64,000 nucleotides of DNA from a phage. Positions 37,189 to 59,773 of the stretch are shown in pieces. Every line of letters begins with the position of its first letter. Positions within the stretch are counted from its first letter, which is position 1. The stretch lies in sequence record PZ386955.1. One strand, given 5' to 3'. The position numbers and the translations under genes are program-made. A model generated the notes under the pieces. It made no database searches, was not told the DNA's origin, and was given only the letters and a program-made list of their open reading frames with translations.

Positions 37189-37920
37189 TTAATCAGTGCT
37201 TTCAGGGTGATTTTGCTGTTCAGTGTACTCATTTAGTCGTTCCTCCGCTTGCTTAAAAATATTTACATCGGCTTCACAGCCTAAGTATTCTCTACCTGTT
37301 AAAAGTGCCGCAACTTGTGTTGTTGCACTTCCAGAGAAGAAGTCTAAGACTACATCTCCTTCGTTGGTGTGTATATTAATAAGGTCACAAAACAAAGTCA
37401 AGTGTTTTTGTGTTGGATGAAAACGATCTGCTCCTTGATAGATAGGATACTCAAACACACCCTTATGGTAGGAAGCATTGAAGGTTGGCTTAGAACCTTT
37501 AACACAAACAATAGCCATTTCTTTAGCGTTACTAAGGTAGTTAACACCACTGTTGATGGGTACAGGGTTTGTTTTAATCCATTCAATAGTACGGAACATA
37601 CGAAAACCAAGCGGTTCAAGGATTTCACGTAGCTCCTGGATCTTCCACATATCATACCAAACTATGCAAGTACCACCTTTTCTAAGCACCCTGTAGGCTT
37701 CTTTGAATACTTCTTTAAAGTAAGGAATATCTACAACATCCCAATCACCAAAGTTGTAAGATACACGGAATCTATCCGTATCTTTTCCAGTAGGCTCTCC
37801 AGACTGAAAATTTGTGTCACGAGAAATAGCATATGGTGGGTCAGTAAGAATCAAATCTACACTATTGCTTTCGAGGGTTTGCAGGTAGTTTAATGCAGTG
37901 TTGTTTACAAATTCGCTCAT
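37189..37920 (-). CDS. DNA methyltransferase (N6-adenine / N4-cytosine type, beta-class motif order), orphan
   Basis: DPPY motif near N-terminus (LILTDPPYAISRD) and AdoMet-binding F.G.G-like motif near C-terminus (VVLDFFSGSATT); no adjacent restriction enzyme gene. Confidence 0.75.
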   Translation of the reverse strand: MSEFVNNTALNYLQTLESNSVDLILTDPPYAISRDTNFQSGEPTGKDTDRFRVSYNFGDWDVVDIPYFKEVFKEAYRVLRKGGTCIVWYDMWKIQELREILEPLGFRMFRTIEWIKTNPVPINSGVNYLSNAKEMAIVCVKGSKPTFNASYHKGVFEYPIYQGADRFHPTQKHLTLFCDLINIHTNEGDVVLDFFSGSATTQVAALLTGREYLGCEADVNIFKQAEERLNEYTEQQNHPESTD

Positions 37921-39386: not shown

Positions 39387-39980
39387 TTAAATTTTAAATT
39401 CTTCATTGTTAAATGAATCCAGTGTACGTACTTCTGGCTCTTTGGGAATGAAAACGTCTTTTACAAAGCGGAACATAGGGAAACGTTCTGCCATTTTACG
39501 GACGTGTGCTTCTTTACCTGTGTATCGGTGATTAATAGTACAAATATTAGTTTTCAGTGCAAATTCAAAATCTGGATGATATACATAATTTTGACCATCC
39601 CAGTAACACAAGCAAATAGCTACATCAAAGTTCCATACGATTTCACTGCGTACACCTTCTTCCATGATCATAAAGTTAAACTTAAGATCTTTATAGTATG
39701 CTTCAAATACCCATTTCAAATGTGGTAGTTCGGCATAAGTGTGTTCTGTTTGCTTAGTAAGTTGTTTAACATTACGTGCACCAACACCCAACATCAAAAA
39801 CTTCTCTACTAGCACGAGTGTATTGTGGTTAGGCATACGCAAGTAAATGTCAATGTCTTGTGCAGGTTTCTCTAATCGCCAATCACGTACAGCGCCGCCA
39901 GCTACAATTGCAAACGGATCTACCAGTTGGCACATACGTAATACTTCTAAAGCGCGTACTTTTTGATCTTCAATATTCAT
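39387..39980 (-). CDS. Small nucleotidyltransferase (Pol beta superfamily; GGAVRD ... DIDI motif)
   Basis: IVAGGAVRDWRL...AQDIDIYL matches the hG[GS]-x-DhD signature (CCA-adding / minimal nucleotidyltransferase-like head); only 197 aa. Confidence 0.55.
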   Translation of the reverse strand: MNIEDQKVRALEVLRMCQLVDPFAIVAGGAVRDWRLEKPAQDIDIYLRMPNHNTLVLVEKFLMLGVGARNVKQLTKQTEHTYAELPHLKWVFEAYYKDLKFNFMIMEEGVRSEIVWNFDVAICLCYWDGQNYVYHPDFEFALKTNICTINHRYTGKEAHVRKMAERFPMFRFVKDVFIPKEPEVRTLDSFNNEEFKI

Positions 39981-40117: not shown

Positions 40118-42697
40118 CTAGTGACAACTGGCCCATGAGTTACCAACATCGTAACCAGCAGTGAGAGGTACATTAAGATTGTAATACTCACCAGCTTTAT
40201 TAACAGCAATAGATGCTAATTCTCCAGCACGACTGTAGGCTGTAAACCAACCACCTTTCGGAGATTCATGTACGTTAGCCCAAATCTTGCCAGTACGTTT
40301 CTCTTCCTCTTCTTTCCAGGCATTAACTTTATCCAAACATTCTTTATCAATTTTCTTTTGTTCTTCTGGATCATCAACTTGAGTCCAACCTAAAGATTCT
40401 TTAGAGAACCATTTAAAATGCACCAGATCACGAGTTACTTCAAGCTGTGCTTCATCGTGGTATGCAATCATTTGTTGAACGAATGACTTATTTTTCCAGT
40501 CATCAACAAAAAAGTCAACAGCTAATCCTTCTTCTTCGATAAGATCGTCGTAGATAACCATTGCTCTTTTTGCACAAATAACACCACCACTCTGGAACAG
40601 AGAGTTAAGTATTGCGTGTGCAGATCGTGTAGGTACTTTTCTACCATCAATACCGAGAATGTATTTCTTACCTGTTTTAACCCAAAAATCATGCAGACGT
40701 TCTTTAAGAAGCGCAAGAGGTTTTGCAGCTTCCCAGAAAGCATCGTATACAAGCTGTCCTGTATACATATCACTACCAATAGTTTTTGCTACTTTTGCAG
40801 CTTGAGCACCATAAGTAATACCATACTTAACAGATTTAGCAGGGCTTCGTTCAAACTTACGACCAATAGTATCAGAAATACGTCGAGCCATCATTGTATG
40901 AACATCATTAGGTTTTTCCAACAATAGAGCATTACAATATTCGTGTGGTTCCTGCTCGTACCGCCAACAGTAGTGTGATTCTATTTTTGCCTCAAGAGAA
41001 TCAAAGTCATAACCAATTTGGAAGTATTTTGGAACTTCTACACCAAATAAGTTACGCATTTCATACCCGTACAAAGATGTTACACGTGGGATGTTTGCTA
41101 CTAACCTATGTTTCATACGAGACGTAGCTGCATCACACGTTGCAGCAGGAGTTGGTATACGACCATCAGCCCTTACTGCCGCCAGATACCCTTTATCATA
41201 ATCCTCTTCATCTTCTTCCCAATCAGCACCACCACCTAGAATAGAGTTTCTACGATGTTTATACGTAAGATACTGCACAATCTGCGTAGCATAAGGAAAC
41301 TTTTCACCTAGTGCTTCCAAGTTAGGACAAATATCCTTCTCTTGCCCTTTTGTAAAGGAAGGGTTAGTAAGCACTTTAACACCACGACCTTTAGCTTTAG
41401 CAATACGATCTCTTAGTTTCCATTCCAAAGTTTCTGGTGTGCACTCCAGATGATCACATCTATCCTGGCAGAAGTTAGATGCTAATGTTTGATCAACATA
41501 GTCACGAATAGCTTTCTCCATTTGTGCTTCATCTTTCTTAATCTTAGTGCCAGATTTAAGAGTGATATCTTTATCTTTATATTCAGATGGACTCCAACCT
41601 AAACCAACTAACCAATTTTTAATATGTGTAGTGTCATCTAAAGTAGCAGGTACTGTAGGATCACAAATAGGTTCTTCTGCTGGAATAGGTAGTTTAAACT
41701 CTTTACCTAATGCAAATAACCACCAACCATCTTCTTTTTGTACAAGTTCACCAGAATGTTTCTCTGCAAACTTTATCATGTTACTTGAAGGTTCACCATT
41801 CTTTTTAAACTGTAGTTTAGGTGGAATGAATGATTTCAAATAACCTTTAGTAGCAGGTTTAGGAGGTAGCACAGGTTCTGCCTCTAAACGACATGCTTCC
41901 ATTCGAGCATCCAGATCACGAATATTATCTTCTGCTTGTTTCATATTGAAAGCAAAGCCACGGTGCTCTTGACGTGTAATAATATCAGCTACACGTTGTT
42001 CTAAGTTAAATGGTTCAGACCACTTATTATAATCACCCCACTCTTCCATCAAATAACGGAACACTGCGGTGTTAGCTTTGTTATCGTAAATACAGTAATA
42101 CAGCATATCTGCTGCAAATGTTTTAAATCTTTCAGTTTCAGGAATGTTTTTTCTAAAATCAATTTTAACATCCCCTCCAGCTTTCTTAGATAACTCTGCC
42201 AGACTATGACCACCGAAGCGATCAGGGTTTAGTGTCTTACTTAAGATCATAGTATCACAAATTTCAATGTTACTATTACCCCAAGTATTGTACTTAATAC
42301 TGTAGTTGAGTTTAAAAAATAATTTAATTGCCAGTAAGTCGAAGTTAATGATGTTGTGTCCAACTACTTTGGTAATTTTATAGTTTGAATTACCTTTAAA
42401 TTTACCTGTTCCATTTACAAAATCAGGAAAATCTTTAAGAGGGAAATGGGTATATTCTAAATGCTCATATTCCTCCAGTCGGTATTCATACTTTCCGTCA
42501 GTCTCAATATACGGACGACCATCGAAAAGATATTTATCACCATCATGGAAAGCAATAATCTCTCCAGTATCATGACTTTCGCACACAATACAGTGCATTG
42601 CAAAACTATCTTTTAAACGATATGGACTTGCCAAGTAATCTACACTTTCGTCATTAAGCAAGTTGTTACTTTCAATGTCGAAAGTAAAAGCTCCCAT
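40118..42697 (-). CDS. DNA polymerase, family A, with 3'-5' exonuclease domain
   Basis: Exo I FTFDIESNN; motif A-like DFDSLEAKI; motif B-like RSPAKSVKYGITYGAQ; motif C IAYHDEAQ; 859 aa. Confidence 0.8.
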   Translation of the reverse strand: MGAFTFDIESNNLLNDESVDYLASPYRLKDSFAMHCIVCESHDTGEIIAFHDGDKYLFDGRPYIETDGKYEYRLEEYEHLEYTHFPLKDFPDFVNGTGKFKGNSNYKITKVVGHNIINFDLLAIKLFFKLNYSIKYNTWGNSNIEICDTMILSKTLNPDRFGGHSLAELSKKAGGDVKIDFRKNIPETERFKTFAADMLYYCIYDNKANTAVFRYLMEEWGDYNKWSEPFNLEQRVADIITRQEHRGFAFNMKQAEDNIRDLDARMEACRLEAEPVLPPKPATKGYLKSFIPPKLQFKKNGEPSSNMIKFAEKHSGELVQKEDGWWLFALGKEFKLPIPAEEPICDPTVPATLDDTTHIKNWLVGLGWSPSEYKDKDITLKSGTKIKKDEAQMEKAIRDYVDQTLASNFCQDRCDHLECTPETLEWKLRDRIAKAKGRGVKVLTNPSFTKGQEKDICPNLEALGEKFPYATQIVQYLTYKHRRNSILGGGADWEEDEEDYDKGYLAAVRADGRIPTPAATCDAATSRMKHRLVANIPRVTSLYGYEMRNLFGVEVPKYFQIGYDFDSLEAKIESHYCWRYEQEPHEYCNALLLEKPNDVHTMMARRISDTIGRKFERSPAKSVKYGITYGAQAAKVAKTIGSDMYTGQLVYDAFWEAAKPLALLKERLHDFWVKTGKKYILGIDGRKVPTRSAHAILNSLFQSGGVICAKRAMVIYDDLIEEEGLAVDFFVDDWKNKSFVQQMIAYHDEAQLEVTRDLVHFKWFSKESLGWTQVDDPEEQKKIDKECLDKVNAWKEEEEKRTGKIWANVHESPKGGWFTAYSRAGELASIAVNKAGEYYNLNVPLTAGYDVGNSWASCH

Positions 42698-43193: not shown

Positions 43194-44966
43194 TTAATAA
43201 GAACCATCAGGAATATTCTCTGGGTTACTTGTGTATTGATCGTAATCGTGAAGTGTAGCTGTTTTAATCTCATAGAAGAAACTACCTGCTGCACCAGTCT
43301 CTGAGAACTCACGGTTCTTTAGAATGTAGCAATATGTGCGGTTACGTTCCATAGGATCTTCAGCTTGTTTATCACGCTCCAGCGCAATTGTGATACCAGC
43401 ACCTTTAGCAAGGAAGCTACTACCCATTGCATCATCTTCTACAATATGTTCATTACTATTGTTAGAAGACTTTTTAACGTGTGAAATTACAACAATGGTA
43501 ATTGCGTACTCTTTCATAATGCGTTTGAGCCACGTCGCAAGTTCCTCTTGTTGTGACACGTCCATACCAGAAAGCAAATCAGAATAAGGGTCGATAACAA
43601 GAATGGTTACTCCGAAATAAATAATCATTTCCAGAACCTTCTCTTTAATCACATCTACGTTAGCTCCACGATCATCACAAACATAGAAACGTGGTGTTCC
43701 ATCTTCCCGTTCGTAAAAATCACGAATCTTTTCTTCATTATCTTTTAAAATCTTTTCCTTCTCTTCTTTCGTTTTACGGTGAAGAGGGATATGCAAGAAT
43801 GAAGACAGTAAGTTACGAGAATACTTCTTATACGTTGCCTCCAAAGATAAAATACCAAGAGTATGTTCTGGGTGTGCAAGAATAATGTGCTTCGTAATCT
43901 CGTTAACCAACAGTGTTTTACCGATACTTGTTTTTGCAAGTATAACAGTAATTTCTTCTTCTACCAAGCCTCCACCTAACATATTAGAAGCAACACGCAT
44001 GAATGGAGGAAGGGTGATCATTTTAGCTTCCAGGCATTCCAAGGCTGCTTCATACAGTACGTTAGAAGCATAAACACCAGCAGGTGTGTACAGTTTAGCT
44101 TTGAAAAAGCGATCAAGAAAGTGATCAATTTTTCCTTCTACTAGTGCCTGGTTAGGATCTTTAACATCTGTTAGTTCCATCACGTAAACTTTATTACGTG
44201 GTAAGATTTTAACACATTTCTCAACTGCTGCACGTCCAGCTTCATCATTATCCATACATAGAACAATCTTTTTAAATTGATCTAAGAATTTATAACGATG
44301 TTGAAGCTGCTTATGCAGAGATGTTTCGCCACAAGTGCCAGATACTACAGCAGGAACAGGATATTTACCACCCTTGTTATAATCTTTTAGCATCTGTGTT
44401 GCAGCCAGCATATCGTGTTCACCACCAACGATTAGAATAGTACCGCTGTGGTTACGATATTTAAACTCCCCAAAAAGATCACAATCCTTTCCTGTTTCAC
44501 CGATAGGATGTGAGAAATCTTTTGGATCGATACGTTGTTTATACCCAGCAATATTGTAATCTTTAGTTGTAGGGTATAGTGTTGAAATTACTTCGCCAGT
44601 AGCTTCATCGTACATATAACGTACACCGAAAGGCTTAGAGATATCTTCACGAATACCGCGATAACCTTTTGGATTAGTTCCAGTGCTGGCTTTCAGTTTA
44701 TCATGTACTTCTGGATTAAACTCACTACCCAAGATATCCTCCTCTTCAATTTCTTCGCCGTGTGCATTTAACCATTTTTGATCAGGGATAGTAAAGCCAC
44801 AAGAAAAACAATGTGCGCCTCGATGGTCTTCATCGGCATCTAAGCCATATACCATCAAATTGTTTTGTGATCGATCACGCCCTCCTTTCATACAACGAGG
44901 ACACCCAGTATGTCCTTCTTGACTTAGATCAATATTATACCCATATTTATTTACAACATAAGACAC
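43194..44966 (-). CDS. DNA primase-helicase (T7 gp4-like: zinc-ribbon primase + DnaB-like helicase)
   Basis: N-terminal zinc ribbon C.RC...C.SC; DnaB-like C-terminal half with Walker A AKTSIGKT and Walker B-like VLVIDPYSDL. Confidence 0.75.
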   Translation of the reverse strand: MSYVVNKYGYNIDLSQEGHTGCPRCMKGGRDRSQNNLMVYGLDADEDHRGAHCFSCGFTIPDQKWLNAHGEEIEEEDILGSEFNPEVHDKLKASTGTNPKGYRGIREDISKPFGVRYMYDEATGEVISTLYPTTKDYNIAGYKQRIDPKDFSHPIGETGKDCDLFGEFKYRNHSGTILIVGGEHDMLAATQMLKDYNKGGKYPVPAVVSGTCGETSLHKQLQHRYKFLDQFKKIVLCMDNDEAGRAAVEKCVKILPRNKVYVMELTDVKDPNQALVEGKIDHFLDRFFKAKLYTPAGVYASNVLYEAALECLEAKMITLPPFMRVASNMLGGGLVEEEITVILAKTSIGKTLLVNEITKHIILAHPEHTLGILSLEATYKKYSRNLLSSFLHIPLHRKTKEEKEKILKDNEEKIRDFYEREDGTPRFYVCDDRGANVDVIKEKVLEMIIYFGVTILVIDPYSDLLSGMDVSQQEELATWLKRIMKEYAITIVVISHVKKSSNNSNEHIVEDDAMGSSFLAKGAGITIALERDKQAEDPMERNRTYCYILKNREFSETGAAGSFFYEIKTATLHDYDQYTSNPENIPDGSY

Positions 44967-44978
44967 ATGATTCTCCTA

Positions 44979-45248
44979 CTAAAATGATTCGTTTGTCTCC
45001 ATAATATATTGCATTTCCAAATCTTCCATATGTTTCTTAAATTGGTAAACAATTTCCGATGGGGAAATATCTATATCAAAAAGTTCTTTTGTACCAGAAT
45101 AAAATCTAATACCATCAACAATAAGACCACCATAATAATCCCAATCACTTTCTCGTGAGAAAGGGTTAGGTTCTTCATAATAGTAATCTACTTCAACAAT
45201 AATAGGTTCTTTATTATCTTGTTTATACTCAAAATCAAAAGTGTTCAT
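44979..45248 (-). CDS. Hypothetical protein
   Basis: 89-aa acidic ORF coupled to neighbours. Confidence 0.35.
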   Translation of the reverse strand: MNTFDFEYKQDNKEPIIVEVDYYYEEPNPFSRESDWDYYGGLIVDGIRFYSGTKELFDIDISPSEIVYQFKKHMEDLEMQYIMETNESF

Positions 45249-46192
45249 TATAAATCCTCGATAAGCAGTCTGCGGGTTTCATTTAAATCATCAATATTGT
45301 AGTTATCTCTTACATACTTAGCAAGAGCCAATCCTTTCTCAATACAAACATCAGGAGATTCGATTAAGTATTCTACAATATCTTTCCACTCTTTAACTGA
45401 ATCAGCAAAGAAGATTAGATCTTTAAACTCTTCAGTATAATAGTTCTCTCGTGGTGAACAAACGAGTGGCAAACCTTTAGCACCAGCTTCAAGAATTTTT
45501 AAATTACTTTTGGCATTATTAAAATGATTATTTACTAATGGAGCTATGGAGATTTGATGACCATCGTATGCTTCCATATAACACTCATAAGGACGAATAC
45601 CCTCATAAACACAATCTGGTTGAATATCTTCTTTAATTTGCAACCATTGAGCACTACTTAACTCTTCGTGATCTCTACGAAATCCACATAAAGTTAAATC
45701 TTTACCAAAACTAGGAAGAATAGCTAAATCATGTTTATGTGTTTCACTTCCCGCCCAAACCAGTGGACTTTTAGAATAACGATCTTTAGTAAGAACAAAC
45801 TGTCCTTCATCAAAAGGTAGTCCGTTAGGCACAATATGTACATTATCATTGTATTGGCTTAATTCAACCTTTAATGCTGGAGTTGTTGTAGTTACAAGAT
45901 CGCTTCTTTCAAGGAACCATTTTAGATCATCTCGGATTTGATTTTCAAATAATCCTTCAAGCATATGTCCTTCAGGAATAATTAAAGAATCATCCAGATC
46001 CATTACCAATTTAAACCCAAGTTGTTTAAGAGCCAGGAAACCTGGCTTTCCACGGGTTGGTACTCCATTGAACACAAAAATATTATGCTTAGGATTAATG
46101 GTCAGTTTGCGTTTATATGGCAAAATGATTCTATGAAAATCACATACACTATACTTTTCATTTTCGCGTGTGTCAAGAATAATGTTAGGCAT
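45248..46192 (-). CDS. Glycosyltransferase (GT-B-like), paralogue 1
   Basis: C-terminal block DGHQISIAPLVNNHFNNAKSNLKILEAGAKGLPLVCS resembles the GT1/GT4 sugar-donor-binding region; paralogous to 46204 gene. Confidence 0.5.
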   Translation of the reverse strand: MPNIILDTRENEKYSVCDFHRIILPYKRKLTINPKHNIFVFNGVPTRGKPGFLALKQLGFKLVMDLDDSLIIPEGHMLEGLFENQIRDDLKWFLERSDLVTTTTPALKVELSQYNDNVHIVPNGLPFDEGQFVLTKDRYSKSPLVWAGSETHKHDLAILPSFGKDLTLCGFRRDHEELSSAQWLQIKEDIQPDCVYEGIRPYECYMEAYDGHQISIAPLVNNHFNNAKSNLKILEAGAKGLPLVCSPRENYYTEEFKDLIFFADSVKEWKDIVEYLIESPDVCIEKGLALAKYVRDNYNIDDLNETRRLLIEDL

Positions 46193-46203
46193 ATCGCTCC
46201 TTA

Positions 46204-47178
46204 TTAAAGACTTTCAATAACTTGACGACGCAGTTCATTGGCATCTGCAAGATTATAATTAAGACGAACGTGTTCTGCAAGCATCATACCACGATCTTCT
46301 GTGTATCTAGGGTTCCTCATTAGCTTGACAACTTCATAATGCCAAGATGCTTTAGAGTCTGCATAAATAACAGCCTTTGCATCTACTGGATTGAAGTACG
46401 GCAGCACAGGAGAACAGATAATAGGAAGACCCTTTGCACCTGCTTCCAAAATCTTCAAATTGCTTTTACAGTTGTTGAAGTCATTATCTACCAGAGGAGC
46501 AATTGCAATACTGTGACCGTCATACACAGACATATACTCACCTAGATTTTTAATAGCTGGTTTATACTGTGCATTTGGAATTTTACGTTTTATTTTAACC
46601 CACTCCGCAGTAGTTAGATACTGACTATTATTTCCAACAGGTGCAGAAGGATACACTTCGTACCCTGCAATTGTCAATAGTGTATCATCAAATGTATTAG
46701 CTACAAGAGATAAATCAGGTTCATGGCTTGCTCCTCCAGCCCAAACAATAGGTGTGTCAGAATAACGGTCTTTTGTTAAAGTAAATTGACCTTCATCGTA
46801 AGGCAGTGCGTTTCTAATAACGACAACATTACGATTTAAATGACGAATTTTGTAAGCTAGGTATTCTGTTGTTACAGTAACCACATCTGCTAACTTAATC
46901 ATCTCTACAATAGTCTTTGAGTGATTAGTAAATACGCCAGCCATATAATGTTCAGGATTAAGCGAATAAAAATCATCTAAATCAACAATAATCTTAACAC
47001 CTTGTGCCTTCAGGCGTTTAACTTCGTCTGATCCACGAGAATACACTCTATTAAAAACTAAAACGTCTTTCTTAGGTTTAAACGTATTTCCAGCAAATGG
47101 CATTACAATACGATGGTAATCACAACCACTGCCTAACTTATTATCACACTTAAGTACAGGAGTATTAGGATTTACCAT
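46204..47178 (-). CDS. Glycosyltransferase (GT-B-like), paralogue 2
   Basis: Block DGHSIAIAPLVDNDFNNCKSNLKILEAGAKGLPIICS nearly identical to paralogue 1; start taken at internal ATG 47178 after GAGGAGG (track start 47217 also possible). Confidence 0.5.
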   Translation of the reverse strand: MVNPNTPVLKCDNKLGSGCDYHRIVMPFAGNTFKPKKDVLVFNRVYSRGSDEVKRLKAQGVKIIVDLDDFYSLNPEHYMAGVFTNHSKTIVEMIKLADVVTVTTEYLAYKIRHLNRNVVVIRNALPYDEGQFTLTKDRYSDTPIVWAGGASHEPDLSLVANTFDDTLLTIAGYEVYPSAPVGNNSQYLTTAEWVKIKRKIPNAQYKPAIKNLGEYMSVYDGHSIAIAPLVDNDFNNCKSNLKILEAGAKGLPIICSPVLPYFNPVDAKAVIYADSKASWHYEVVKLMRNPRYTEDRGMMLAEHVRLNYNLADANELRRQVIESL

Positions 47179-47851
47179 ATTTTTGAGCCTCCTCATAAGA
47201 GATAAAAGTTTTACCATTGCGAAGATCCTCCAGTGATTGTTTATATTGTTCCCAGTTTACACCAATCCCCTGTTCTTTCTCTTCTTTTGACAGATTCGCA
47301 AAAGGTAAAGGATTGTCTCCAAACACATCGTCAGGATGGATAAACGCCATAATTCGAATAGGACATGGTACGCCGTGAATACCTCGGTTCAAACCTGCCA
47401 GTGGAACGCGCTGAATCCACTCTGCATCTTCATATCCATAACCGTGGGTGTATGAGCGGAAATAGCCAGCTTTCTCAATAACTGCACGGGAATACATACC
47501 AAACTGGCACATGCCTAGCTCCCAAATAACCACTTCTCCTTCAATACCTTTTACTTTATCTTTAAAGTATTCAGGCATACCAAAGAAATCCCAACCATTT
47601 TCCTTCGCCTGTTTTACAAAATATGTTTCCCAACCTGGAACAACAGGATAACAATCATCATCAAAAATAAACCAGTAGTCATACCCTTCATCATAAAACT
47701 TTTTCATCAGTTCATTACGGGCATATGCAACACCTTTTCGTTCACGATCATACTGTACAACAAAAGTAGCATTAGGATCAGTTACAAGATAATCTTTAAG
47801 AGGACGCTTACCTACAGTAATAACACCAACACCAATTTTTGTATTTTCCAA
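47165..47851 (-). CDS. Glycosyltransferase, GT-A-like (DxD motif)
   Basis: Rossmann-like N-terminus IGVGVITVGKRP and acidic FIFDDDCYP motif typical of family 2-like GT-A enzymes. Confidence 0.5.
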   Translation of the reverse strand: MENTKIGVGVITVGKRPLKDYLVTDPNATFVVQYDRERKGVAYARNELMKKFYDEGYDYWFIFDDDCYPVVPGWETYFVKQAKENGWDFFGMPEYFKDKVKGIEGEVVIWELGMCQFGMYSRAVIEKAGYFRSYTHGYGYEDAEWIQRVPLAGLNRGIHGVPCPIRIMAFIHPDDVFGDNPLPFANLSKEEKEQGIGVNWEQYKQSLEDLRNGKTFISYEEAQKYGKS

Positions 47852-47860
47852 AATAACTCC

Positions 47861-48424
47861 TTAAATAATTTTATTCATGTCTTGACAATGTAAAAGGTGT
47901 GAAACAGCTTTTCTAGGATCATCATTACCTAAACGGTATGTGTGAAATAAATATAACCCACGTAGTAAACCTAGCCTTTTATTGTTAGCGTGCAATGCTT
48001 TAGAGAAAATTATATCAAACTGTATTGATCTTTCCTCAAAAGGAATTTCATTCCACAGACTCTTACGAAAGAGAAGAAAGAATCCTGCTAAGATAGCATC
48101 TGTAGGTACTTCCTCTATTGAGTTTCCCCATTCTAGATGTGCTCTTTTTGCAATCTCAATGTGGTGTAATATATTCGGATCTTCACTTCTTTCATTATTA
48201 AATAATTGATATGTTGATCCCAATCTGTTACAAGATGCACCAAGAACATCAAAATCAGGATTTGAACGGACAATTGATTCCAGCCAAGCAGGTTGTTCTG
48301 GAAGAAGAAACATTGTATCAATGTCTCTTAGGCAAATCCAACTATCTTCTGGTAAGACACTTATTGTGTCATTGATACCTTTTCCAATATCTCCAGAAAG
48401 ATAGGGAGTTATGTGAAATATCAT
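47861..48424 (-). CDS. Hypothetical protein, possible GT-A-like glycosyltransferase
   Basis: ICLRDIDTMF acidic motif; adjacent to the glycosyltransferase genes. Confidence 0.3.
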   Translation of the reverse strand: MIFHITPYLSGDIGKGINDTISVLPEDSWICLRDIDTMFLLPEQPAWLESIVRSNPDFDVLGASCNRLGSTYQLFNNERSEDPNILHHIEIAKRAHLEWGNSIEEVPTDAILAGFFLLFRKSLWNEIPFEERSIQFDIIFSKALHANNKRLGLLRGLYLFHTYRLGNDDPRKAVSHLLHCQDMNKII

Positions 48425-48481
48425 ACTCCCTCCGTATTATTACTTTAGCATTTTTAGACTAAAAAGTCCAAATGGTTTTAC

Positions 48482-48676
48482 CTATTGATTACGTTTTGCG
48501 AGTTCCATTTGGATAGCTAAACTGTGATCTCGTGCTTCCATATACTCTTTATATGTTTCATTAAGATGATCACGACAAACATCACGCAGTTTAATCAGTT
48601 TATCTGTAGGGATACCACTAAGATCATCCCAAGATTTTACAACTTCACCAGTATCATTGATCCCAATGGTTTTCAT
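48482..48676 (-). CDS. Hypothetical protein
   Basis: 64-aa ORF. Confidence 0.3.
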   Translation of the reverse strand: MKTIGINDTGEVVKSWDDLSGIPTDKLIKLRDVCRDHLNETYKEYMEARDHSLAIQMELAKRNQ

Positions 48677-48884
48677 CTACAACCTCCTTAATTGCTACAG
48701 CACAGTTTTTGCAGATACACTGCCCTTTACCTTTAGAAATCTGGATGTAAGGTTCATTTTCATTTTCGCCCTTACGTGAGTCATATATTACAGAATTGAA
48801 GCACACAACGCAAATATTTTTTAAGATTGTATACTTATCAACTTTCTTTTTTGTTTTAAAGTTAACTTCAATAACATCAGCCAT
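48654..48884 (-). CDS. Small zinc-ribbon protein
   Basis: CVVCF ... CICKNC pairs of cysteines; start at internal ATG 48884 overlapping upstream stop (ATGA). Confidence 0.4.
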   Translation of the reverse strand: MADVIEVNFKTKKKVDKYTILKNICVVCFNSVIYDSRKGENENEPYIQISKGKGQCICKNCAVAIKEVVDENHWDQ

Positions 48885-49172: not shown

Positions 49173-49682
49173 TTAGCGATAGAATTGATGTTCTTTGTAG
49201 CGGTACACTAGAACCATATCTTTTTCCCAGTGTGCTCTTATTGTAGATTTTTTAAAGTATAATGCTCCTTTTGTAATATCTAATGCAATTCGTAATTCTG
49301 GAAAATGCGTATCGAGATAAAGTAGACGTTCTGCTATAGCCTTAGCTTCCTTCCACTTATCACGTTCCATAACGTTGAATGTCTTTGTGTAAGAGAATTG
49401 TCCTTTTTGAAACAAAACTTCTTTTATAGTATCAGGGAAATATGAATCTCTAGCCCTATTCAATACTACATTACCAACAGCAGACATACCGCGCTTTCCT
49501 TGATTACGACTTTCTGCATAGATTGCACAAGCTAATAGATTTTCTTTACTATCACGCTTTGTACACTTGTGAACTACTTTAGCAGTTTTTACGTTTGCAG
49601 CTTCGGCTTGCGCCACAACAGGTGTAAATGTAAAAGCAGTTAAGGATAGTAACGCAATTGCGACAAAGGTTTTTATTGACAA
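49173..49682 (-). CDS. Secreted cell-wall hydrolase (SleB/CwlJ-type), candidate endolysin
   Basis: N-terminal signal peptide MSIKTFVAIALLSLTAFTFTPVVAQA; hydrolase block LLACAIYAESRNQGKRGMSAVGNVVLNRA. Confidence 0.6.
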   Translation of the reverse strand: MSIKTFVAIALLSLTAFTFTPVVAQAEAANVKTAKVVHKCTKRDSKENLLACAIYAESRNQGKRGMSAVGNVVLNRARDSYFPDTIKEVLFQKGQFSYTKTFNVMERDKWKEAKAIAERLLYLDTHFPELRIALDITKGALYFKKSTIRAHWEKDMVLVYRYKEHQFYR

Positions 49683-50404: not shown

Positions 50405-50420
50405 GCGCCCCGAAGGGCGC
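50405..50420 (-). terminator. Rho-independent terminator after the TerD gene
   Basis: GCGCCC-CGAA-GGGCGC hairpin; on the minus strand followed by ATATTTTAAATAAAAG. Confidence 0.55.
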
Positions 50421-50429
50421 TATGATTTA

Positions 50430-51026
50430 TTACTCGAACCAATCGTCGCCAGCGCCAAACGCTTTAACTACATCGTAAATGTCAAGCCCAGCTTTACCCA
50501 CACCATACGCTTTCAGTTTCCATTCGCTATCTTCTCGCACCAGGGAGGCAACGTGGCAAATGGTGTTACCTGCAAGTTCTGGAGCCAAGAAGTCAAAGTC
50601 CAGCAGTTCAACATTACGTTCATCATCGAAGATTTTAAGGAAACCTTCGGTAGCGTGACCAAGGCGTTTCTTACCCGTTTCGTCATCAATAGTAATTACG
50701 AATGCAATTTCCTGTGCTTCAGCAGAGATATTATCCAGTGTAACATCAATCTGCTCCATCTGTCCTACACCATCACGAACATCTTCACCTGCAAAAGTAG
50801 AACGTTCAGGATCAAATTTCTGCGCGTAGCACACCAGGTGACGAGGAGACAACAGTTCCGGCAGACCAGATGCATTGTGTCGGCAAATCAGAGCACTAAC
50901 ATCCAGATCCAGTTTTTCGTTAGATTTCCAAGAGAATTCCAGACGAATGCGTTTCAGTGCTGGTGCAATCTTTTTCAGAGAAACTTTTTCGCTAGAACCT
51001 TTTTTCAGGGAAATTTTCTGAGTCAT
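50430..51026 (-). CDS. TerD-family protein (tellurium-resistance TerD/TerE/TerZ domain)
   Basis: N-terminal ISLKKGSSEKVSLKK, DLDVSAL, IAFVITIDD, C-terminal EWKLKAYGVGKAG align block-by-block with R478 TerD. Confidence 0.75.
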   Translation of the reverse strand: MTQKISLKKGSSEKVSLKKIAPALKRIRLEFSWKSNEKLDLDVSALICRHNASGLPELLSPRHLVCYAQKFDPERSTFAGEDVRDGVGQMEQIDVTLDNISAEAQEIAFVITIDDETGKKRLGHATEGFLKIFDDERNVELLDFDFLAPELAGNTICHVASLVREDSEWKLKAYGVGKAGLDIYDVVKAFGAGDDWFE

Positions 51027-51098
51027 AATTTATTATCTCCTTTGTTGTTAATTTACGTTGTCTATTTTACTAATCTTTTCTACAAAGTCAAGCGTTTT

Positions 51099-51893
51099 TT
51101 ACGCTTTTGCTCCAAATTTTTTAACCCACTCACCAAACTCTTCGGATAGCAGTTTATCGTAAAGTTCTTCGTCAGACAAGGACAAATCTGCAATACCGAT
51201 AAAATCAACATTATCGTATTCTTTTGCCAAGTCTTTCAGGAATTTAAAGTTTGCATTACCTACACCAACCATAAACCAGTAAACAGGCGTATTGCGGTGT
51301 TTGTTCAGTAAGCTACGTACTGCTGAAGTATCCATGTTCTCCCCGTCAGTTTGGAAGAAAATCATTGCAGGAGTACGATCAACTTGTGCATCAGTATCTA
51401 CAACCTGTTCTACAACAGTACGTGTTACTTCTACAAGTTCTTTTTTACCAGTTAGTTTAGCAAGGAAACCTTTAGCCGGAACTTCTTCATACTCAACGAC
51501 TTCGCGTGTAATATTTTTCATAGGTACACTACCGAAGTATGTATCATAGATCTCTTGCATTACTGGAGCATAAGCAGTACCACCGTTGATGCAAACATTA
51601 GACATGCAAGAGCCGACATAATCATCATACACATCAGCCGTTGCAGGAGGCAGTTCAAAAGAAGAACTATTGAAAGCCCACATGTCAATCTGTGCATTAT
51701 CATCAAACTTCATACCAAACGGCAGCAGTTTACCTACAAAATCGCTAACAGTGCCATCACGATACAGCTCACACATACTACCCGAAATATCTAAGGCGCT
51801 ACCTACACGAAGAACAACATCGTTAATCTTTTTCTTACGCAGGGATACAGTAAGAGTTTCTTGACGTTTTTTAAGACTGATTTTATTGGACAT
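51099..51893 (-). CDS. von Willebrand factor A domain protein (TerY-like)
   Basis: MIDAS-type motif DISGSM and downstream FFQTDGENMD (TDG motif); N-terminus ISLKKRQETLTVSLRKK resembles the TerD N-terminal strand. Confidence 0.65.
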   Translation of the reverse strand: MSNKISLKKRQETLTVSLRKKKINDVVLRVGSALDISGSMCELYRDGTVSDFVGKLLPFGMKFDDNAQIDMWAFNSSSFELPPATADVYDDYVGSCMSNVCINGGTAYAPVMQEIYDTYFGSVPMKNITREVVEYEEVPAKGFLAKLTGKKELVEVTRTVVEQVVDTDAQVDRTPAMIFFQTDGENMDTSAVRSLLNKHRNTPVYWFMVGVGNANFKFLKDLAKEYDNVDFIGIADLSLSDEELYDKLLSEEFGEWVKKFGAKA

Positions 51894-51894
51894 A

Positions 51895-52164
51895 TTATTT
51901 CTCCTTTCTGACTGTAATGTTAGTAACTTCTAAATCCACTTCTACCACTTCTGTATCATATAAAATACAGTTAAGTTGACCTCTTTGTGAACCGTTAAGA
52001 CACATTGCTTGGTTTGTATTAACCTTAATAAACACTAAGTTTCTGAACGTATCTAAACCAGCATCTTGATAGGCAACATAATATACGAATGTATCACCTG
52101 TGTCAAGTTCTCCAAAACATTTAGGTTCATCTGATTTGTCGTCTTTGATATTAAATTTAAGCAC
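51895..52164 (-). CDS. Hypothetical protein
   Basis: 89-aa ORF coupled to the vWA gene. Confidence 0.35.
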   Translation of the reverse strand: MLKFNIKDDKSDEPKCFGELDTGDTFVYYVAYQDAGLDTFRNLVFIKVNTNQAMCLNGSQRGQLNCILYDTEVVEVDLEVTNITVRKEK

Positions 52165-52720
52165 TGTCTTCTCCTTTACCTGCTCTCAAGCCTAAATAGA
52201 AAGCCTCTCTAGTGATTTTTTGCAACTCGTTTAAAGAGATAGTTACAACTAAATCATCTTCAATTTCTAGCTTTGAGTCTTCTTCTGTCTCAATGCAAGT
52301 ATTATGCACTTTGTGGTAAGGATTGTCAACACGTTTAAATTTATTATTTTCAGTGCTGAAGAAGCAATCTGGATCTTCTTCTCCATCACCCCAACCCTGG
52401 TTAGGGTCTTCTTCAGATCTTTCTGTTGGGATCTCACCTGTAAAGTGTTCTTCTAATACCAGAGCAATCCCATCTCCAAGATCGGAAGAGAACATCAAAT
52501 TACAAACTTCTTCCCAAGGCATAGACCACTTGAATCTTTTACGATTGCCATGTTTATCTTCTTCGTTAGAGAAAACACTACCATAGCTATCATAATTCCC
52601 ATACATCTCTTCGACAACCTTACCACCTTTCAAAAGAAATAGGTAGCAAGGAGAGCCATCGAAAGAGGTAGAAAGAGCAGCATTACCAGACTCTTTGCAC
52701 AAGAAACTAAAACACCCCAT
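52157..52720 (-). CDS. Hypothetical acidic protein
   Basis: 187-aa ORF, Asp/Glu-rich, Cys-containing. Confidence 0.4.
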   Translation of the reverse strand: MGCFSFLCKESGNAALSTSFDGSPCYLFLLKGGKVVEEMYGNYDSYGSVFSNEEDKHGNRKRFKWSMPWEEVCNLMFSSDLGDGIALVLEEHFTGEIPTERSEEDPNQGWGDGEEDPDCFFSTENNKFKRVDNPYHKVHNTCIETEEDSKLEIEDDLVVTISLNELQKITREAFYLGLRAGKGEDSA

Positions 52721-52920
52721 TATACACCAGCCTTAAGATCAATTAAAGCCAAAGTTGTTTCAGAGTGTGTTTGCTCGTCTACAGGTGCAGTCATATGATA
52801 ATACAAAAAATCTTCGGCATCATACCAATCTGATTCTTGACCTTGTTTCCAACCATCAATGAAAGCATCTTCCATAATGGTTTGCAATTCTTCACGAGTT
52901 AAGTGAATATCTTTACTCAT
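52720..52920 (-). CDS. Hypothetical protein
   Basis: 66-aa acidic ORF, coupled. Confidence 0.3.
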   Translation of the reverse strand: MSKDIHLTREELQTIMEDAFIDGWKQGQESDWYDAEDFLYYHMTAPVDEQTHSETTLALIDLKAGV

Positions 52921-53126
52921 TACACATTCTCCTCTTTTACCAATTCCATCGTTGAACTATCAAAACCATCTTTAGAAGAATAGGTATAGACAGAACGTAG
53001 TTCTCGCAGGACAGTGAATACATTGGGATCATCTAACCAAGCATCCTGGAGGAGAACATAACGATCTTCATTGTCGTACTGGACAGCAATCATAGAACCA
53101 GACAGTTTGTAAATTTTAATATTCAT
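52920..53126 (-). CDS. Hypothetical protein
   Basis: Start moved to internal ATG 53126 preceded by AAGGAGAA (track start 53153 overlaps upstream gene). Confidence 0.3.
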   Translation of the reverse strand: MNIKIYKLSGSMIAVQYDNEDRYVLLQDAWLDDPNVFTVLRELRSVYTYSSKDGFDSSTMELVKEENV

Positions 53127-53139
53127 AATATATTTCTCC

Positions 53140-54243
53140 TTAAAGTAGACCACGTTTAACAGTTTGAATCATACCATCTTCAAGAGATTGCACTTCTTGA
53201 ATGTAATCAATACGCGCAGCACGGGCTTCAGTGTTGATTCGGTTAGTTTCTTCCAACATTTTAACTAAGTTTTCTTGATCGCGACGTAATGTTTCAATAT
53301 CCAATACTTGACGATTAGCAAGTTGTGTAGCTTCAATTTGGTTTTGTGCAGCCAGATCACTACCCATTGCAATAGCAGCATTAAATTCATTCAGCACATT
53401 GTTCTGTGTATCGGCTGCTTTCTTCTGGCGTAGACTTTCAATATACATAGAAAAGTTTGCAGAGTAAGCAGGGATAACATTATTCACAATATTACGGGCT
53501 GATCGCATCAAACTTGCAGATACTTTCTGCATACTTTGTACCCGTGGCCCCATCTGAACACACAGTAAACGCAAGGCTTTCAGGTCTGCAATACGAATTT
53601 CAAGCAGATCCATAGTATCACGAGTACGTTGACGCTCTTCTACTTCATTTTCAGGTAGTGTATTAAGGCGAACTTCTTCTTTTTCATAAGTAGCTGTTAG
53701 AAGCTCTATATCCCTGTTTAAGCTAAGAGCATATTTTGCAATAGCCTCTTCTAAACGTTGCAGATATCGTAAAGAATCTTCTTCTTTTTTCAAGTCTGTT
53801 TGTAGTGTCTTTACCAAACCTTCAATACGGTTATTGATGGTGTCAAATTCTCCAAACAAATCTTCTTTCATACCTAATACTTTCTTAACTAGTTTACCTA
53901 AGCCTTTAGATTGTTTAATAGAGTTAGGATCAAGTTGCTTTGCTTGCTTAATAAGTGCAGTTAAACGTTCACTCATTTCATCCCCCTGAGATGAACGCTG
54001 GTGTTTAAGCACTTCAGCATTAAGGTTACGAAGAGTAAGTCCTGCATCAGCACCAACTTGTTCAATCTCTTCACGAGACATTGGAGGCAGCATTTGTACA
54101 GGTCGTGCAACAGCAGGGGCATATACAGGGCTTGCATCCATAGCACTTGGAGCAAACAAAGACTTACTTTTTTCTGTTGTTGCCGTGAATACACTCATTT
54201 CAGACGGTTTGCTTTTTACGGCACTGATAAAAGGACTGGACAT
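53140..54243 (-). CDS. TelA/KlaA-like toxic-anion-resistance family protein (tentative)
   Basis: 367-aa, predicted largely helical/coiled-coil, size and composition fit TelA; located among TerD, vWA and TerC genes; not verified by HMM. Confidence 0.4.
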   Translation of the reverse strand: MSSPFISAVKSKPSEMSVFTATTEKSKSLFAPSAMDASPVYAPAVARPVQMLPPMSREEIEQVGADAGLTLRNLNAEVLKHQRSSQGDEMSERLTALIKQAKQLDPNSIKQSKGLGKLVKKVLGMKEDLFGEFDTINNRIEGLVKTLQTDLKKEEDSLRYLQRLEEAIAKYALSLNRDIELLTATYEKEEVRLNTLPENEVEERQRTRDTMDLLEIRIADLKALRLLCVQMGPRVQSMQKVSASLMRSARNIVNNVIPAYSANFSMYIESLRQKKAADTQNNVLNEFNAAIAMGSDLAAQNQIEATQLANRQVLDIETLRRDQENLVKMLEETNRINTEARAARIDYIQEVQSLEDGMIQTVKRGLL

Positions 54244-54311
54244 TCAATTTCCTCCATATTCTTTAGTAGATGGTGATACCTCTGTACCACCATCATAACA
54301 CAAATTAAGTA

Positions 54312-55163
54312 TTAAACAAACATATCTAAATAATTTGTAGTAATAAATGCTCCATCTGCTTCCAGATTAACATAACCAGTAGCATTAGTGGTTAAGAAAT
54401 CCAGATCGAAGGACTCTTTAACACCCCGTACCTCAACACGAGAGATATCGAATACAGGTAGTGTAACAGCCTCTTCGTGCAATACCGTACCTTTGTAGGT
54501 TGCCTTAATGATAAACTTGATATTACCCGTTCCAGCATCATACAAAACACTTTCAAACCCTTTGAGAGTATACTTATCACCAGAAGTGAAGTGCAAAGTT
54601 GCTTTGTTTACAGTACGTTTCTTACGAGGAGTTCCTTTCACACGTTTATGATCACTACGTTTTTTGTATTTAGGAATGAATACAAACGATACATTGTGAA
54701 GAAAGGTATCAACATCAAGGATTTTAATATCCTCTGTTGCAGCAAATTTTGAAGTTGTTGCATCAAAATGCTTTTCCCTGCGATCATACATAAAGATATC
54801 AAACCGATCTTCTAAATCAAACAAATTATGTATTTTAATTTCAGAATGCTTGCGCATTGCAGCAACCTTGAACTCTTCAAAACGTGGGTGTTCTACAAGT
54901 TCTTCAAGTTTTACACCAAAGACAGTATATTGCTTCGGAGTTTTTTCTGGTGTTGGCATTACAGAAGCATAATCCCCGATTGCGCTCTTAAAGCAAAATT
55001 GTTCTTGACCTGTATTTTTACCAACGAATTTACAGTATTCGTCATCGTGCATACTTTCCTGGGTAGTACCAACAAACTCAAAACCATCTTTATTCTTCTC
55101 AAGAATTTCTTGATTAAAGATCCAACCTTCCAGGCGATACACTTTACCAACTTCTAGTTTCAT
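54312..55163 (-). CDS. Hypothetical protein
   Basis: 283-aa ORF, Lys-rich central region. Confidence 0.4.
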   Translation of the reverse strand: MKLEVGKVYRLEGWIFNQEILEKNKDGFEFVGTTQESMHDDEYCKFVGKNTGQEQFCFKSAIGDYASVMPTPEKTPKQYTVFGVKLEELVEHPRFEEFKVAAMRKHSEIKIHNLFDLEDRFDIFMYDRREKHFDATTSKFAATEDIKILDVDTFLHNVSFVFIPKYKKRSDHKRVKGTPRKKRTVNKATLHFTSGDKYTLKGFESVLYDAGTGNIKFIIKATYKGTVLHEEAVTLPVFDISRVEVRGVKESFDLDFLTTNATGYVNLEADGAFITTNYLDMFV

Positions 55164-55198
55164 CTGTTTCTCCTTCTTATTTAATCTGTATTAAATTA

Positions 55199-55789
55199 TT
55201 AACGACGACGTGAGCTACTAAAACTACGTTTCGACGAAGAATAACTTTTCGAAGACTTACTATAAGAGCTAATAGGGCTTGAGTAAGACTTACGAGCAGA
55301 GTAATTACTATTCACTTTTGTTGTTGATGGGCGTGAATACGTTTGTACACTTTGCTGCTTAATTGTGTTTTGTTTAGTGGTTGTATATGTATTCCCTTGT
55401 TTATCATAAAAACTATGCTTTTGTGTTGTATATGCTTTACTGTTAGTTATAGGAGCAGCGTTGTTATTAATAATTGTTGTGCTGCTACCACCATCCCTAT
55501 AACCACCACCGCCACTATTACCACTCAACATATGACCAAGAAGCATACCTGTAGCGAACTCACCTACGCCAGAAGAACCACTGCCGCCTCCTTGAACAAC
55601 AACTGTTGAAGGTTGTGCAGGTGCTGCTTGAACAACTTGAGGTGCAGGTTGATTTACATATTGCTCATCTACCATCTGATTTGGTGTTTGTTGGTAACGT
55701 TGATTTTGTACATTTTCAGAATCATCACAACCTACCAGCAATACACTACCTAAAACAACTGCAACAATAAAAGATTTAATGTTTTTCAT
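55199..55789 (-). CDS. Lipoprotein with glycine-zipper and Ser/Tyr/Lys-rich tail
   Basis: Signal peptide plus lipobox MKNIKSFIVAVVLGSVLLVGC; GGGSGSSGVGEFATGMLLGHMLSG; C-terminal SYSKSSKSYSSSKRSFSSSRRR. Confidence 0.55.
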   Translation of the reverse strand: MKNIKSFIVAVVLGSVLLVGCDDSENVQNQRYQQTPNQMVDEQYVNQPAPQVVQAAPAQPSTVVVQGGGSGSSGVGEFATGMLLGHMLSGNSGGGGYRDGGSSTTIINNNAAPITNSKAYTTQKHSFYDKQGNTYTTTKQNTIKQQSVQTYSRPSTTKVNSNYSARKSYSSPISSYSKSSKSYSSSKRSFSSSRRR

Positions 55790-55982
55790 TTGTAACCCTC
55801 TCATTTAAAGTCTCAACACAATTTTTAAAATCCCTAGAGAAACAATACATCTGTTCTCCGTTCCTGTTGATAGTAATTGTATGGTTATCAATATATGTTG
55901 TCAAGATAAAAATCAAACAAAACAACCCTAGAGCAAAACAAATATTTTCAAACAGAATCCAAAGAACACGTAAAACCACCAT
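55776..55982 (-). CDS. Small membrane protein
   Basis: 68 aa with hydrophobic helix; stop overlaps the lipoprotein start by 14 nt. Confidence 0.35.
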   Translation of the reverse strand: MVVLRVLWILFENICFALGLFCLIFILTTYIDNHTITINRNGEQMYCFSRDFKNCVETLNERVTNEKH

Positions 55983-56021
55983 CAGATCACCTCAACAAAG
56001 CCCCCGAAGGGGCTTAATGAA

Positions 56022-56999: not shown

Positions 57000-57076
57000 T
57001 CTTTTCTCCTCTTTAATGCGGAGGACAATCCTCCGCTCTATGTCTTATACTATAAACTGTTTTTAAAGAAAGTCAA

Positions 57077-57325
57077 CTAGTTCAGTTCTGTAATTTTAAG
57101 TTTATCTTCTTTGTTAATGATAGGGAAAGCTACAGCATCACCTACATCATCAATAAAGCAAATAGCAAGACCACCTTCCACTTTGCTAACCTGACCATTA
57201 AAGGCATGATACGGGGCAGGAACTTCATCTCCATCTTCAATGAGAATAGCCTCGTAAACCTTGCCGATAGTACAATCACGGGTGTTTATAAATTTTTCAA
57301 GCACTTCAACATTTACTTTACGCAT
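57077..57325 (-). CDS. Hypothetical protein
   Basis: 82-aa ORF upstream of TerC. Confidence 0.35.
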   Translation of the reverse strand: MRKVNVEVLEKFINTRDCTIGKVYEAILIEDGDEVPAPYHAFNGQVSKVEGGLAICFIDDVGDAVAFPIINKEDKLKITELN

Positions 57326-57339
57326 ATAAAGATCCTCTC

Positions 57340-57546
57340 TTATTTGTTAGATTGAAAGATACCACGGAGTACCGCAAGAATGAACGTCACACAGACTACA
57401 CTCCAAAACGTTACAGGAACATGATGCCAGTCTAAGCCGATAATGTCAATCATATAATTGTATGCTAAAAGCAGTAGCCAACTAGGGATTAACACAATCA
57501 AGAACACAACAATAAAACAACCTAATACTGCTAAAACACCTGCCAT
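57340..57546 (-). CDS. Small two-TM membrane protein (holin-like topology)
   Basis: 68 aa with two hydrophobic helices and a short charged C-terminus. Confidence 0.4.
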   Translation of the reverse strand: MAGVLAVLGCFIVVFLIVLIPSWLLLLAYNYMIDIIGLDWHHVPVTFWSVVCVTFILAVLRGIFQSNK

Positions 57547-57555
57547 ACTTTCTCC

Positions 57556-59771: not shown

Positions 59772-59773
59772 TT

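Follow-up and report, generated by a model that had tools for sequence, protein, structure and literature searches.

The glycosyltransferase cluster and its products

The phage DNA analyzed here (sequence record PZ386955.1, a stretch of 64,000 nucleotides referred to below as the window) carries on its minus strand a cluster of four predicted glycosyltransferase genes, the open reading frames (ORFs) ORF1 to ORF4 (Table 1). A first-pass annotation, made from the sequence without database searches, had placed these four ORFs beside the replication genes; their coordinates are confirmed, and the cluster is indeed located directly upstream of the genes for primase/helicase and DNA polymerase A. 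The segment from 44900 to 48700 shares 98–99% identity with over 50 sequenced Escherichia phages belonging to Justusliebigvirus (phi92-like, Stephanstirmvirinae). The genes are already known and annotated—RefSeq names all four "glycosyltransferase," and the BASEL record names two "putative disaccharide synthase" and two "putative glycosyltransferase"—and a role in glycosylation has been suggested earlier.

Judged by sequence and predicted fold, all four products are glycosyltransferases, as the first-pass annotation had proposed, two of the GT-A type (ORF3 and ORF4) and two of the GT-B type (ORF1 and ORF2). All four find matches among PHROG families that carry a glycosyltransferase annotation (E 1e-79 to 1e-149), with ORF2 and ORF1 both matching phrog_7162 (E 2.9e-149 and 3.9e-145, respectively); none of the four proteins is covered by an NCBIfam model. 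ORF1 and ORF2 are paralogues (41% identity over 324 amino acids, E 3e-83). The C-terminal block that they had been noted to share, YDGHxIxIAPLVxNxFNNxKSNLKILEAGAKGLP, likewise shows the highest conservation in the GT-B family as a whole, in which the invariant residues include C32, H35, R36, D79, D81, D82, and the KSNLKxLEAGAKG block. A C-terminal nucleotide-sugar-binding Rossmann domain, which is characteristic of GT-B enzymes, is predicted in ORF1 by a Pfam match that just passes the curated threshold (Glyco_trans_1_2, PF13524; 26.8 bits, cutoff 25). The matches of ORF2 to Glyco_trans_1_4 and Glyco_trans_1_2 are weak (14–18 bits, below cutoff), and many of the GT-B homologues carry precomputed PF13524 or PF13692 assignments.

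The acidic motifs first read from the sequence of the other two proteins are likewise conserved. In ORF3, the residues D64–D66 of the FDDDCYP motif are invariant in 18 homologues, and in ORF4, the DID motif forms part of RDIDT, with D34 and D36 invariant in 34 homologues. ORF4 has no Pfam match. AlphaFold models calculated from family alignments (predicted local distance difference test [pLDDT] scores of 95.2 for ORF4 and 87.4 for ORF3) have a single Rossmann-like α/β/α domain with a DxD-type acidic motif after the central β-strand, as in GT-A enzymes. The nearest solved folds to these models are GlfT2, K4CP, TarP/TarS, RmlT, and cellulose and hyaluronan synthases, and the matches from a Foldseek search of viral structures were generic GT-A proteins only, most of them without a name. 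No solved structure was detectable among PDB sequences in sequence and profile searches with all three families. None of the four proteins has a transmembrane-like hydrophobic segment, and three of the four are acidic (pI 5.1, 8.9, 5.2, and 5.6).

The genes of the cluster are separated by gaps of 9–11 nucleotides or overlap. The true start of ORF2 is probably an internal ATG at 47178, since homologues and the gene calls in relatives have the 324-amino acid length that results from it. Between ORF1 and the primase/helicase gene lies an ORF of 89 amino acids, the position of which is conserved in relatives of this phage; in two distant relatives (L028 and L029), ORFs of 83–84 amino acids occur between the GT-B gene and the next large ORF (427/609 amino acids). 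This small ORF may be co-transcribed with the cluster and is a putative member of the system. A promoter and terminator scan identified no terminator-like site within the run from the glycosyltransferase genes through the 89-amino acid ORF to primase/helicase and polymerase, and the nearest strong terminator is located upstream of the cluster. This suggests that the cluster is co-transcribed with primase/helicase and polymerase; beyond that, the scan was uninformative, with no excess of sites over shuffled sequences. The upstream terminator has a perfect GC stem of 6 bp (GCGCCC-TTCG-GGGCGC), is terminator-like on either strand, and is situated between the TerD gene and an ORF of 200 amino acids. 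The transcription unit that holds the glycosyltransferase cluster and the replication genes probably begins there.

A phage cassette and its cellular relatives

We found 424 homologues of ORF2, and a relative of it is encoded on no fewer than 539 IMG/VR contigs. Of 41 viral loci with a GT-B at least ~35% identical to ORF2, those with an adjacent ORF3-like gene number 34 and those with an adjacent ORF4-like gene 28, and three distinct gene orders occur. These partner genes are true homologues (36–42% identity, E 1e-44 to 1e-56 for ORF3-like; 42–45% identity, E 1e-49 to 1e-55 for ORF4-like), the ORF3-like gene being the near-constant partner of the GT-B in other phages. The shuffled order of the three genes, together with their co-occurrence in unrelated phages, points to a single shared pathway, and we conclude that ORF4-like, ORF3-like, and GT-B genes form a conserved phage cassette. 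Tandem duplication of the GT-B gene occurs only in phi92- and phAPEC8-type phages and their close relatives (loci L017–L027 and L096).

The cassette usually sits in the head and packaging module of unrelated phages. Among 147 ORFs flanking it at 25 diverse viral loci, counted as a pool and not per locus, the commonest PHROG and Pfam families are major head protein, terminase large subunit (TerL), prohead protease, HNH, portal, and head closure; primase/helicase occurs only three times. The genes of an Enterobacter huaxiensis prophage run endolysin, ORF4-like, NAD-dependent sugar epimerase/dehydratase, ORF3-like, GT-B, HNH, terminase small subunit (TerS), TerL, and capsid, and those of a Pseudomonas alliivorans prophage run major capsid, ORF4-like, ORF3-like, and GT-B, followed by connector and tail genes. 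The GT-Bs within such prophage head modules are 43–46% identical to ORF2. Metagenomic phages have the order holin, ORF3-like, GT-B, TerL, and portal; a lambdoid phage has antiterminator Q, lysis genes, cassette, HNH, and terminase; and a further phage has the cassette followed by TerL and portal. Sugar-nucleotide or methyltransferase genes accompany the GT-B in Streptomyces phage KimJongPhill (UDP-glucose dehydrogenase, methyltransferase, GT-B with E 6e-35, TerS) and in a Chitinophaga prophage (rhamnosyl-O-methyltransferase-like gene, an ORF of 232 amino acids, GT-B, SPP1-type portal).

In cellular genomes, the GT-B is rare. A search of 185,579 bacterial and archaeal species, one genome per species, yielded only 95 relatives. 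The close ones belong to Pseudomonas prophages, a Chitinophaga prophage, and three Burkholderiaceae. In the last of these (Trinickia symbiotica, Burkholderia dolosa, and Trinickia sp.; L100, L101, and L103), a chromosomal trio is formed by an inverse-autotransporter (intimin/invasin-like) adhesin, a protein of ~555 amino acids, and a GT-B 42–44% identical to that of the phage; this trio may be a dedicated adhesin-glycosylation system. In the distant relatives (22–32% identity), the GT-B constitutes the C-terminal domain of giant proteins of 900–2,100 amino acids, which also have two or three GT2 domains as well as GT4 domains; the GT-B profile matches this domain with E 1e-22 to 1e-46. The flagellar genes fliC or fliD lie within 10 kb of 23 of 43 such fusions, often as the next gene, where a rough, uncomputed estimate of chance co-location is ~1–2%. 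In Stutzerimonas and Thauera (L137 and L124, checked against Pfam), the neighbors encode a DegT-type sugar aminotransferase, a hexapeptide acetyltransferase, FliC, and FliD, which makes these loci flagellin glycosylation islands.

A characterized island of this kind occurs in P. syringae, in which fgt1 and fgt2 are located upstream of fliC, and Fgt1 attaches rhamnose to flagellin serines in a glycan composed of modified viosamine and two rhamnoses (mVio-Rha-Rha; PMC3927599). The flagellin islands and the phage cassette share a GT-B domain family and the joint action of GT-A (GT2) and GT-B modules, and rhamnose from a dTDP-sugar pathway is the linking sugar in the P. syringae system (PMC3927599). 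The two differ in that the bacterial enzymes are multidomain fusions, whereas the phage versions are separate small genes. These relatives appear to point to protein acceptors and to link the cassette evolutionarily to flagellin-glycosylation enzymes. Flagellin of E. coli K-12 would itself be an implausible target of a lytic phage.

Donor sugar and acceptor

Phi92-like and Phapecoctavirus phages encode a complete pathway for deoxythymidine diphosphate (dTDP)-rhamnose, and rhamnosylation of hydroxymethylated nucleotides has been speculated for them (Olsen et al. 2020, PMC7552041). In the relative JohannJBalmer, which is 98.5% identical to the phage studied here in the cluster region, rmlB, rmlA, rmlC, and rmlD are located at 113945–117205, ~70 kb from the glycosyltransferase cluster. 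The rmlBACD genes lie outside the window and are also present in phi92 and others. In 50,697 phage records, RmlC and the GT-B have nearly equal distributions, each with ~55 matches at the Justusliebigvirus level and ~77–79 at the Phapecoctavirus level. This agreement is consistent with rhamnose as the donor sugar, although it is weak evidence, as only one or two lineage-level events lie behind it.

The best explanation of the cluster, to which we assign a probability of roughly 45%, is a multi-enzyme pathway that O-glycosylates virion proteins step by step, the glycan containing rhamnose. Virion glycosylation had been listed by the first-pass annotation as an alternative, and it is favored by the cassettes in head modules and by the flagellin- and adhesin-linked relatives; the absence of transmembrane-like segments, the acidity of three of the enzymes, and the lack of a DNA acceptor argue in the same direction. 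The four soluble cytoplasmic enzymes would act in series to build a short glycan, with the GT-As ORF4 and ORF3 and the GT-B paralogues ORF2 and ORF1 each adding one sugar. At least one of these sugars would be L-rhamnose, drawn from dTDP-L-rhamnose made by the phage RmlBACD enzymes. The acceptor would be a protein, most likely of the virion (capsid, decoration, sheath, tube, or fiber subunits), with the glycan O-linked to it before or during assembly. If mycobacteriophages are a guide, the phage would probably gain a coat of sugar altering surface properties of the virion, for example antibody recognition, stability, or stickiness.

The mycobacteriophages in question, Che8, Corndog, and Myrna, attach sugars to the proteins of their capsids and tail tubes with their own enzymes, and Che8 gp110 and Corndog gp38 are essential, according to the summary of Freeman et al. 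(2023) given in PMC12363180. As in these three, the phage studied here encodes a set of at least three small cytoplasmic glycosyltransferases (~190–400 amino acids), and the cassettes sometimes have sugar-nucleotide or methyltransferase genes inserted. The layout of the cassette in other phages is also alike. Che8 gp108–110 are followed by HNH and the genome end preceding terminase, and Corndog gp34–38 lie just ahead of the capsid protease; cassette-bearing relatives place the genes right before terminase, often with HNH, or among head genes. Unlike Che8 and Corndog, this phage type has Gram-negative hosts, a complete pathway for dTDP-rhamnose, and, in the window, a cluster placed among replication genes. 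The relation to the mycobacteriophage systems would be one of working alike rather than of membership. A second parallel is provided by chlorovirus PBCV-1, in which virus-encoded GT-A enzymes (A64R) glycosylate the virus's own major capsid protein. This virus also has its own genes for sugar-nucleotide enzymes, and rhamnose occurs in the glycans of its capsid; however, it is a eukaryotic giant virus with atypical N-linked glycans, and the likeness to A64R is at the level of fold only.

Several points weigh against glycosylation of the virion. The evidence on the acceptor is all by association, and the relatives in flagellin islands are only 22–32% identical. Homology to Che8 gp108–110 or Corndog gp34–38 is not detectable (hmmsearch ≤6.5 bits, hhalign probability 0.1–0.6%). 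A main weakness is that in this phage, the cluster sits in the replication rather than a structural module, as do the T4 DNA glucosyltransferases. The literature searched contained no report of glycosylated virion proteins in phi92-type phages, nor any experimental work on phi92 or Phapecoctavirus glycosyltransferases. Nor is it evident which protein could be a common acceptor, as the cassette-bearing phages have unrelated capsid types. The S/T/N-rich tail of the sheath (…NRTANSQNSNSSTVSS) was considered as a candidate acceptor and dropped because it does not track the cluster: Phapecoctavirus has the cluster without the tail, and the end of the rV5 sheath differs. This low-complexity C-terminus is that of the Justusliebigvirus tail sheath; the Phapecoctavirus sheath ends in NRTAN, and that of rV5 otherwise. 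BLAST masked the sheath tail, and the comparison was made by direct reading.

The idea put foremost by the first-pass annotation, and akin to the speculation of Olsen et al. (2020), was that the cluster glycosylates modified bases in the phage DNA; with dTDP-rhamnose as donor, it would do so in the manner of the T-even α- and β-glucosyltransferases (α-gt and β-gt) or the TET-associated glycosyltransferases (TAGT). Like those enzymes, the four are phage encoded and lie beside replication genes: the cluster is co-oriented with the adjoining primase/helicase and polymerase, which recalls T4 β-gt beside gene 42, uvsX, and gene 41. The rml genes, moreover, are located in a nucleotide-metabolism region (PMC7552041), and DNA is the sole component common to all cassette-bearing phages. 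ORF3 also matches Pfam TAGT (PF20691) weakly (23.3 bits against a cutoff of 27.5, E 6.8e-5, residues 16–75 only) as well as phrog_842, "beta-glucosyl-HMC-alpha-glucosyltransferase" (E 5e-5), but both matches are restricted to the N-terminal nucleotide-binding/DxD region common to GT-A enzymes. The α-gt and β-gt enzymes have GT-B folds, yet the GT-B profile scores 1.9 bits on β-gt and does not match α-gt. Searches with both T4 proteins against the window and the JohannJBalmer genome (tblastn, phmmer) gave E values above 0.08, and ORF1 and ORF2 match no DNA-glycosyltransferase PHROG. Nor was a hydroxymethylase partner detected. The window has neither a thymidylate synthase nor a hydroxymethylase, as originally noted, and a search with T4 gp42 of the window and of the 144.8-kb JohannJBalmer genome gave no homologue (best E 1.4). 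The sole "thymidylate synthase" of the latter (L003 13762–14733, 323 amino acids) is a divergent protein of the ThyX type and not of the ThyA family, with a Thy1 score of 37 bits, far under the NCBIfam equivalog cutoff, and a putative activity. No TET/JBP or C5-methyltransferase occurs among the annotated genes of JohannJBalmer, the hypothetical proteins not having been searched individually. Maffei et al. (2021, PMC8594841) measured the effect of restriction-modification systems and found both Vequintavirinae and phi92-like phages "exceptionally susceptible," and this "despite a putative dTDP glycosylation machinery." The cassette also occurs in temperate prophages, which replicate with host DNA, with no hydroxymethylase or base-modifying genes nearby, and the acidity of three of the enzymes speaks against a DNA substrate as well. 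We therefore regard glycosylation of modified bases as very improbable. A variant that we hold to be extremely improbable has sugars put directly on DNA without a hydroxymethyl-pyrimidine precursor, for example at packaging near the terminase, on an unmodified base or on N6-methyladenine made by the Dam-like methylase of the phage, and so sparsely or site-specifically as not to protect against the restriction systems tried to date; if true, it would constitute a new DNA-glycosylation chemistry.

The sugars might instead be destined for the host envelope (lipopolysaccharide core, O-antigen, enterobacterial common antigen, or NGR glycan), remodeled during infection or, for the prophage versions, in lysogens to block superinfection or the trapping of progeny on debris. 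Rhamnose is a common O-antigen sugar, the solved folds predicted to be nearest to ORF3 and ORF4 are those of polysaccharide and teichoic-acid enzymes, and some GT-B homologues have been automatically named "processive 1,2-diacylglycerol beta-glucosyltransferase," besides the "putative disaccharide synthase" of BASEL. Phi92-like phages also recognize several surface glycans (PMC11990801). Envelope remodeling nevertheless seems unlikely to us, given that the four proteins have no membrane segment and that their genes are not accompanied by one for an initiating phosphoglycosyltransferase, a flippase, a polymerase, or a ligase next to them. Seroconversion modules normally lie by the integrase and attachment site (att), whereas temperate phages carry the cassette in late head, packaging, or lysis operons and not beside integrase/att. 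The cellular relatives examined, too, are found beside flagellin or adhesin genes, and none was seen in O-antigen or capsule loci in the annotated part of 80 loci. Some other soluble acceptor, such as a non-structural protein of the phage or the host, or else a small molecule, would leave the virion unmodified and could serve to disarm a defense factor or a signaling nucleotide. Such a role would suit the early/middle position near replication and host-takeover-type genes (Ter cluster, macrodomain, phosphoribosyltransferase, NAD salvage) and the PHROG class of all four proteins, "moron, auxiliary metabolic gene and host takeover." It is made quite improbable by the dedicated four-enzyme dTDP-rhamnose pathway, which suggests sugar in bulk and not in catalytic amounts, and by the recurrent head-module position in unrelated phages, which would not be expected of an anti-defense factor; no defense-family match was seen, the PADLOC library not having been searched.

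Neighboring genes and implications

Upstream of the cluster, the window contains a tellurite-resistance-type (Ter) stress cluster on the minus strand (50430–59789), the genes of which are mostly hypothetical in the BASEL record. Between it and the glycosyltransferase genes, three small ORFs upstream of the latter, lies a gene for a protein of 169 amino acids with a signal-peptide-like N-terminus and a SleB-type cell-wall hydrolase domain (Pfam Hydrolase_2, E 6.5e-20); it is distinct from the endolysin annotated elsewhere in the genome of the relative. A few genes past the polymerase, the window encodes a Dam-like N6/N4 DNA methyltransferase (Pfam N6_N4_Mtase, E 5e-31), and the JohannJBalmer genome has a second putative N6-adenine methyltransferase. 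In JohannJBalmer, a weak NT5C-like nucleotidase gene (L003 14743–15333) adjoins the ThyX-type gene. For an ORF beside the polymerase, the orthologue of 197 amino acids in a near-identical contig (L011) has a precomputed PF26128 "Gad2" label, which a Pfam scan did not reproduce (no match at E ≤0.001).

Table 1. Positions of the features discussed, in coordinates of the window
Feature	Coordinates	Strand	Description
Tail sheath	9495–10898		Low-complexity C-terminus in Justusliebigvirus
DNA methyltransferase	37189–37920	minus	Dam-like N6/N4 type
ORF beside polymerase	39387–39980	minus	"Gad2" label of orthologue not reproduced
DNA polymerase A	40118–42697	minus	Replication gene
Primase/helicase	43194–44966	minus	Replication gene
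89-amino acid ORF	44979–45248	minus	Function not assigned; between ORF1 and primase/helicase; start overlaps ORF1 stop; phrog_4240 (unknown function), E 8e-35
ORF1	45248–46192	minus	314 amino acids; phi92 gp163; predicted GT-B, paralogue of ORF2
ORF2	46204–47217	minus	337 amino acids from ATG 47217; phi92 gp164; predicted GT-B type, cassette core gene
ORF3	47165–47851	minus	228 amino acids, TTG start as in curated relative; phi92 gp165; predicted GT-A (GT2-like), FDDD and YG(Y/F)ED motifs
ORF4	47861–48424	minus	187 amino acids; phi92 gp166; predicted minimal GT-A with RDIDT (DxD) motif; transcribed first in cluster
Cell-wall hydrolase	49173–49682	minus	SleB type
Hairpin	50405–50420	both	Terminator-like
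TerD	50430–51026	minus	Ter cluster
vWA-TerF-like	51099–51893	minus	Ter cluster
TelA	53140–54243	minus	Ter cluster
TerC/Alx membrane protein	56022–56999	minus	Ter cluster
Macrodomain protein	57556–58389	minus	Ter cluster; weak DarG similarity
ComF-like phosphoribosyltransferase	58265–59122	minus	Ter cluster
HAD hydrolase	59115–59789	minus	Ter cluster

Four "Campylobacter phage" records (MG065639, MG065656, MG065645, and MG065689; host C. jejuni) are 98.8–100% identical in protein sequence to this phage type in their glycosyltransferase, RmlC, and sheath genes. Mislabeled hosts, or else contamination of the records, are the probable explanation.

What is new here is the definition of the three-gene cassette, its habit of residing in head modules, its kinship with flagellin-island enzymes, and the virion glycosylation predicted for phages of Gram-negative hosts, among which we know of no demonstrated system of this kind. 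The cassette is compact and widespread, consisting of one GT-A and one GT-B, often with a second mini GT-A. Glycosylation of the virion would give a testable role to genes labeled only as "glycosylation machinery," and would explain why these phages lack protection from restriction. Phi92- and phAPEC8-like phages are among the coliphages of broadest host range and are used in therapy cocktails. If the prediction is true, a phage-made rhamnose glycan would affect antibody recognition, clearance, stability, and binding to mucus and surfaces, as in mycobacteriophages.

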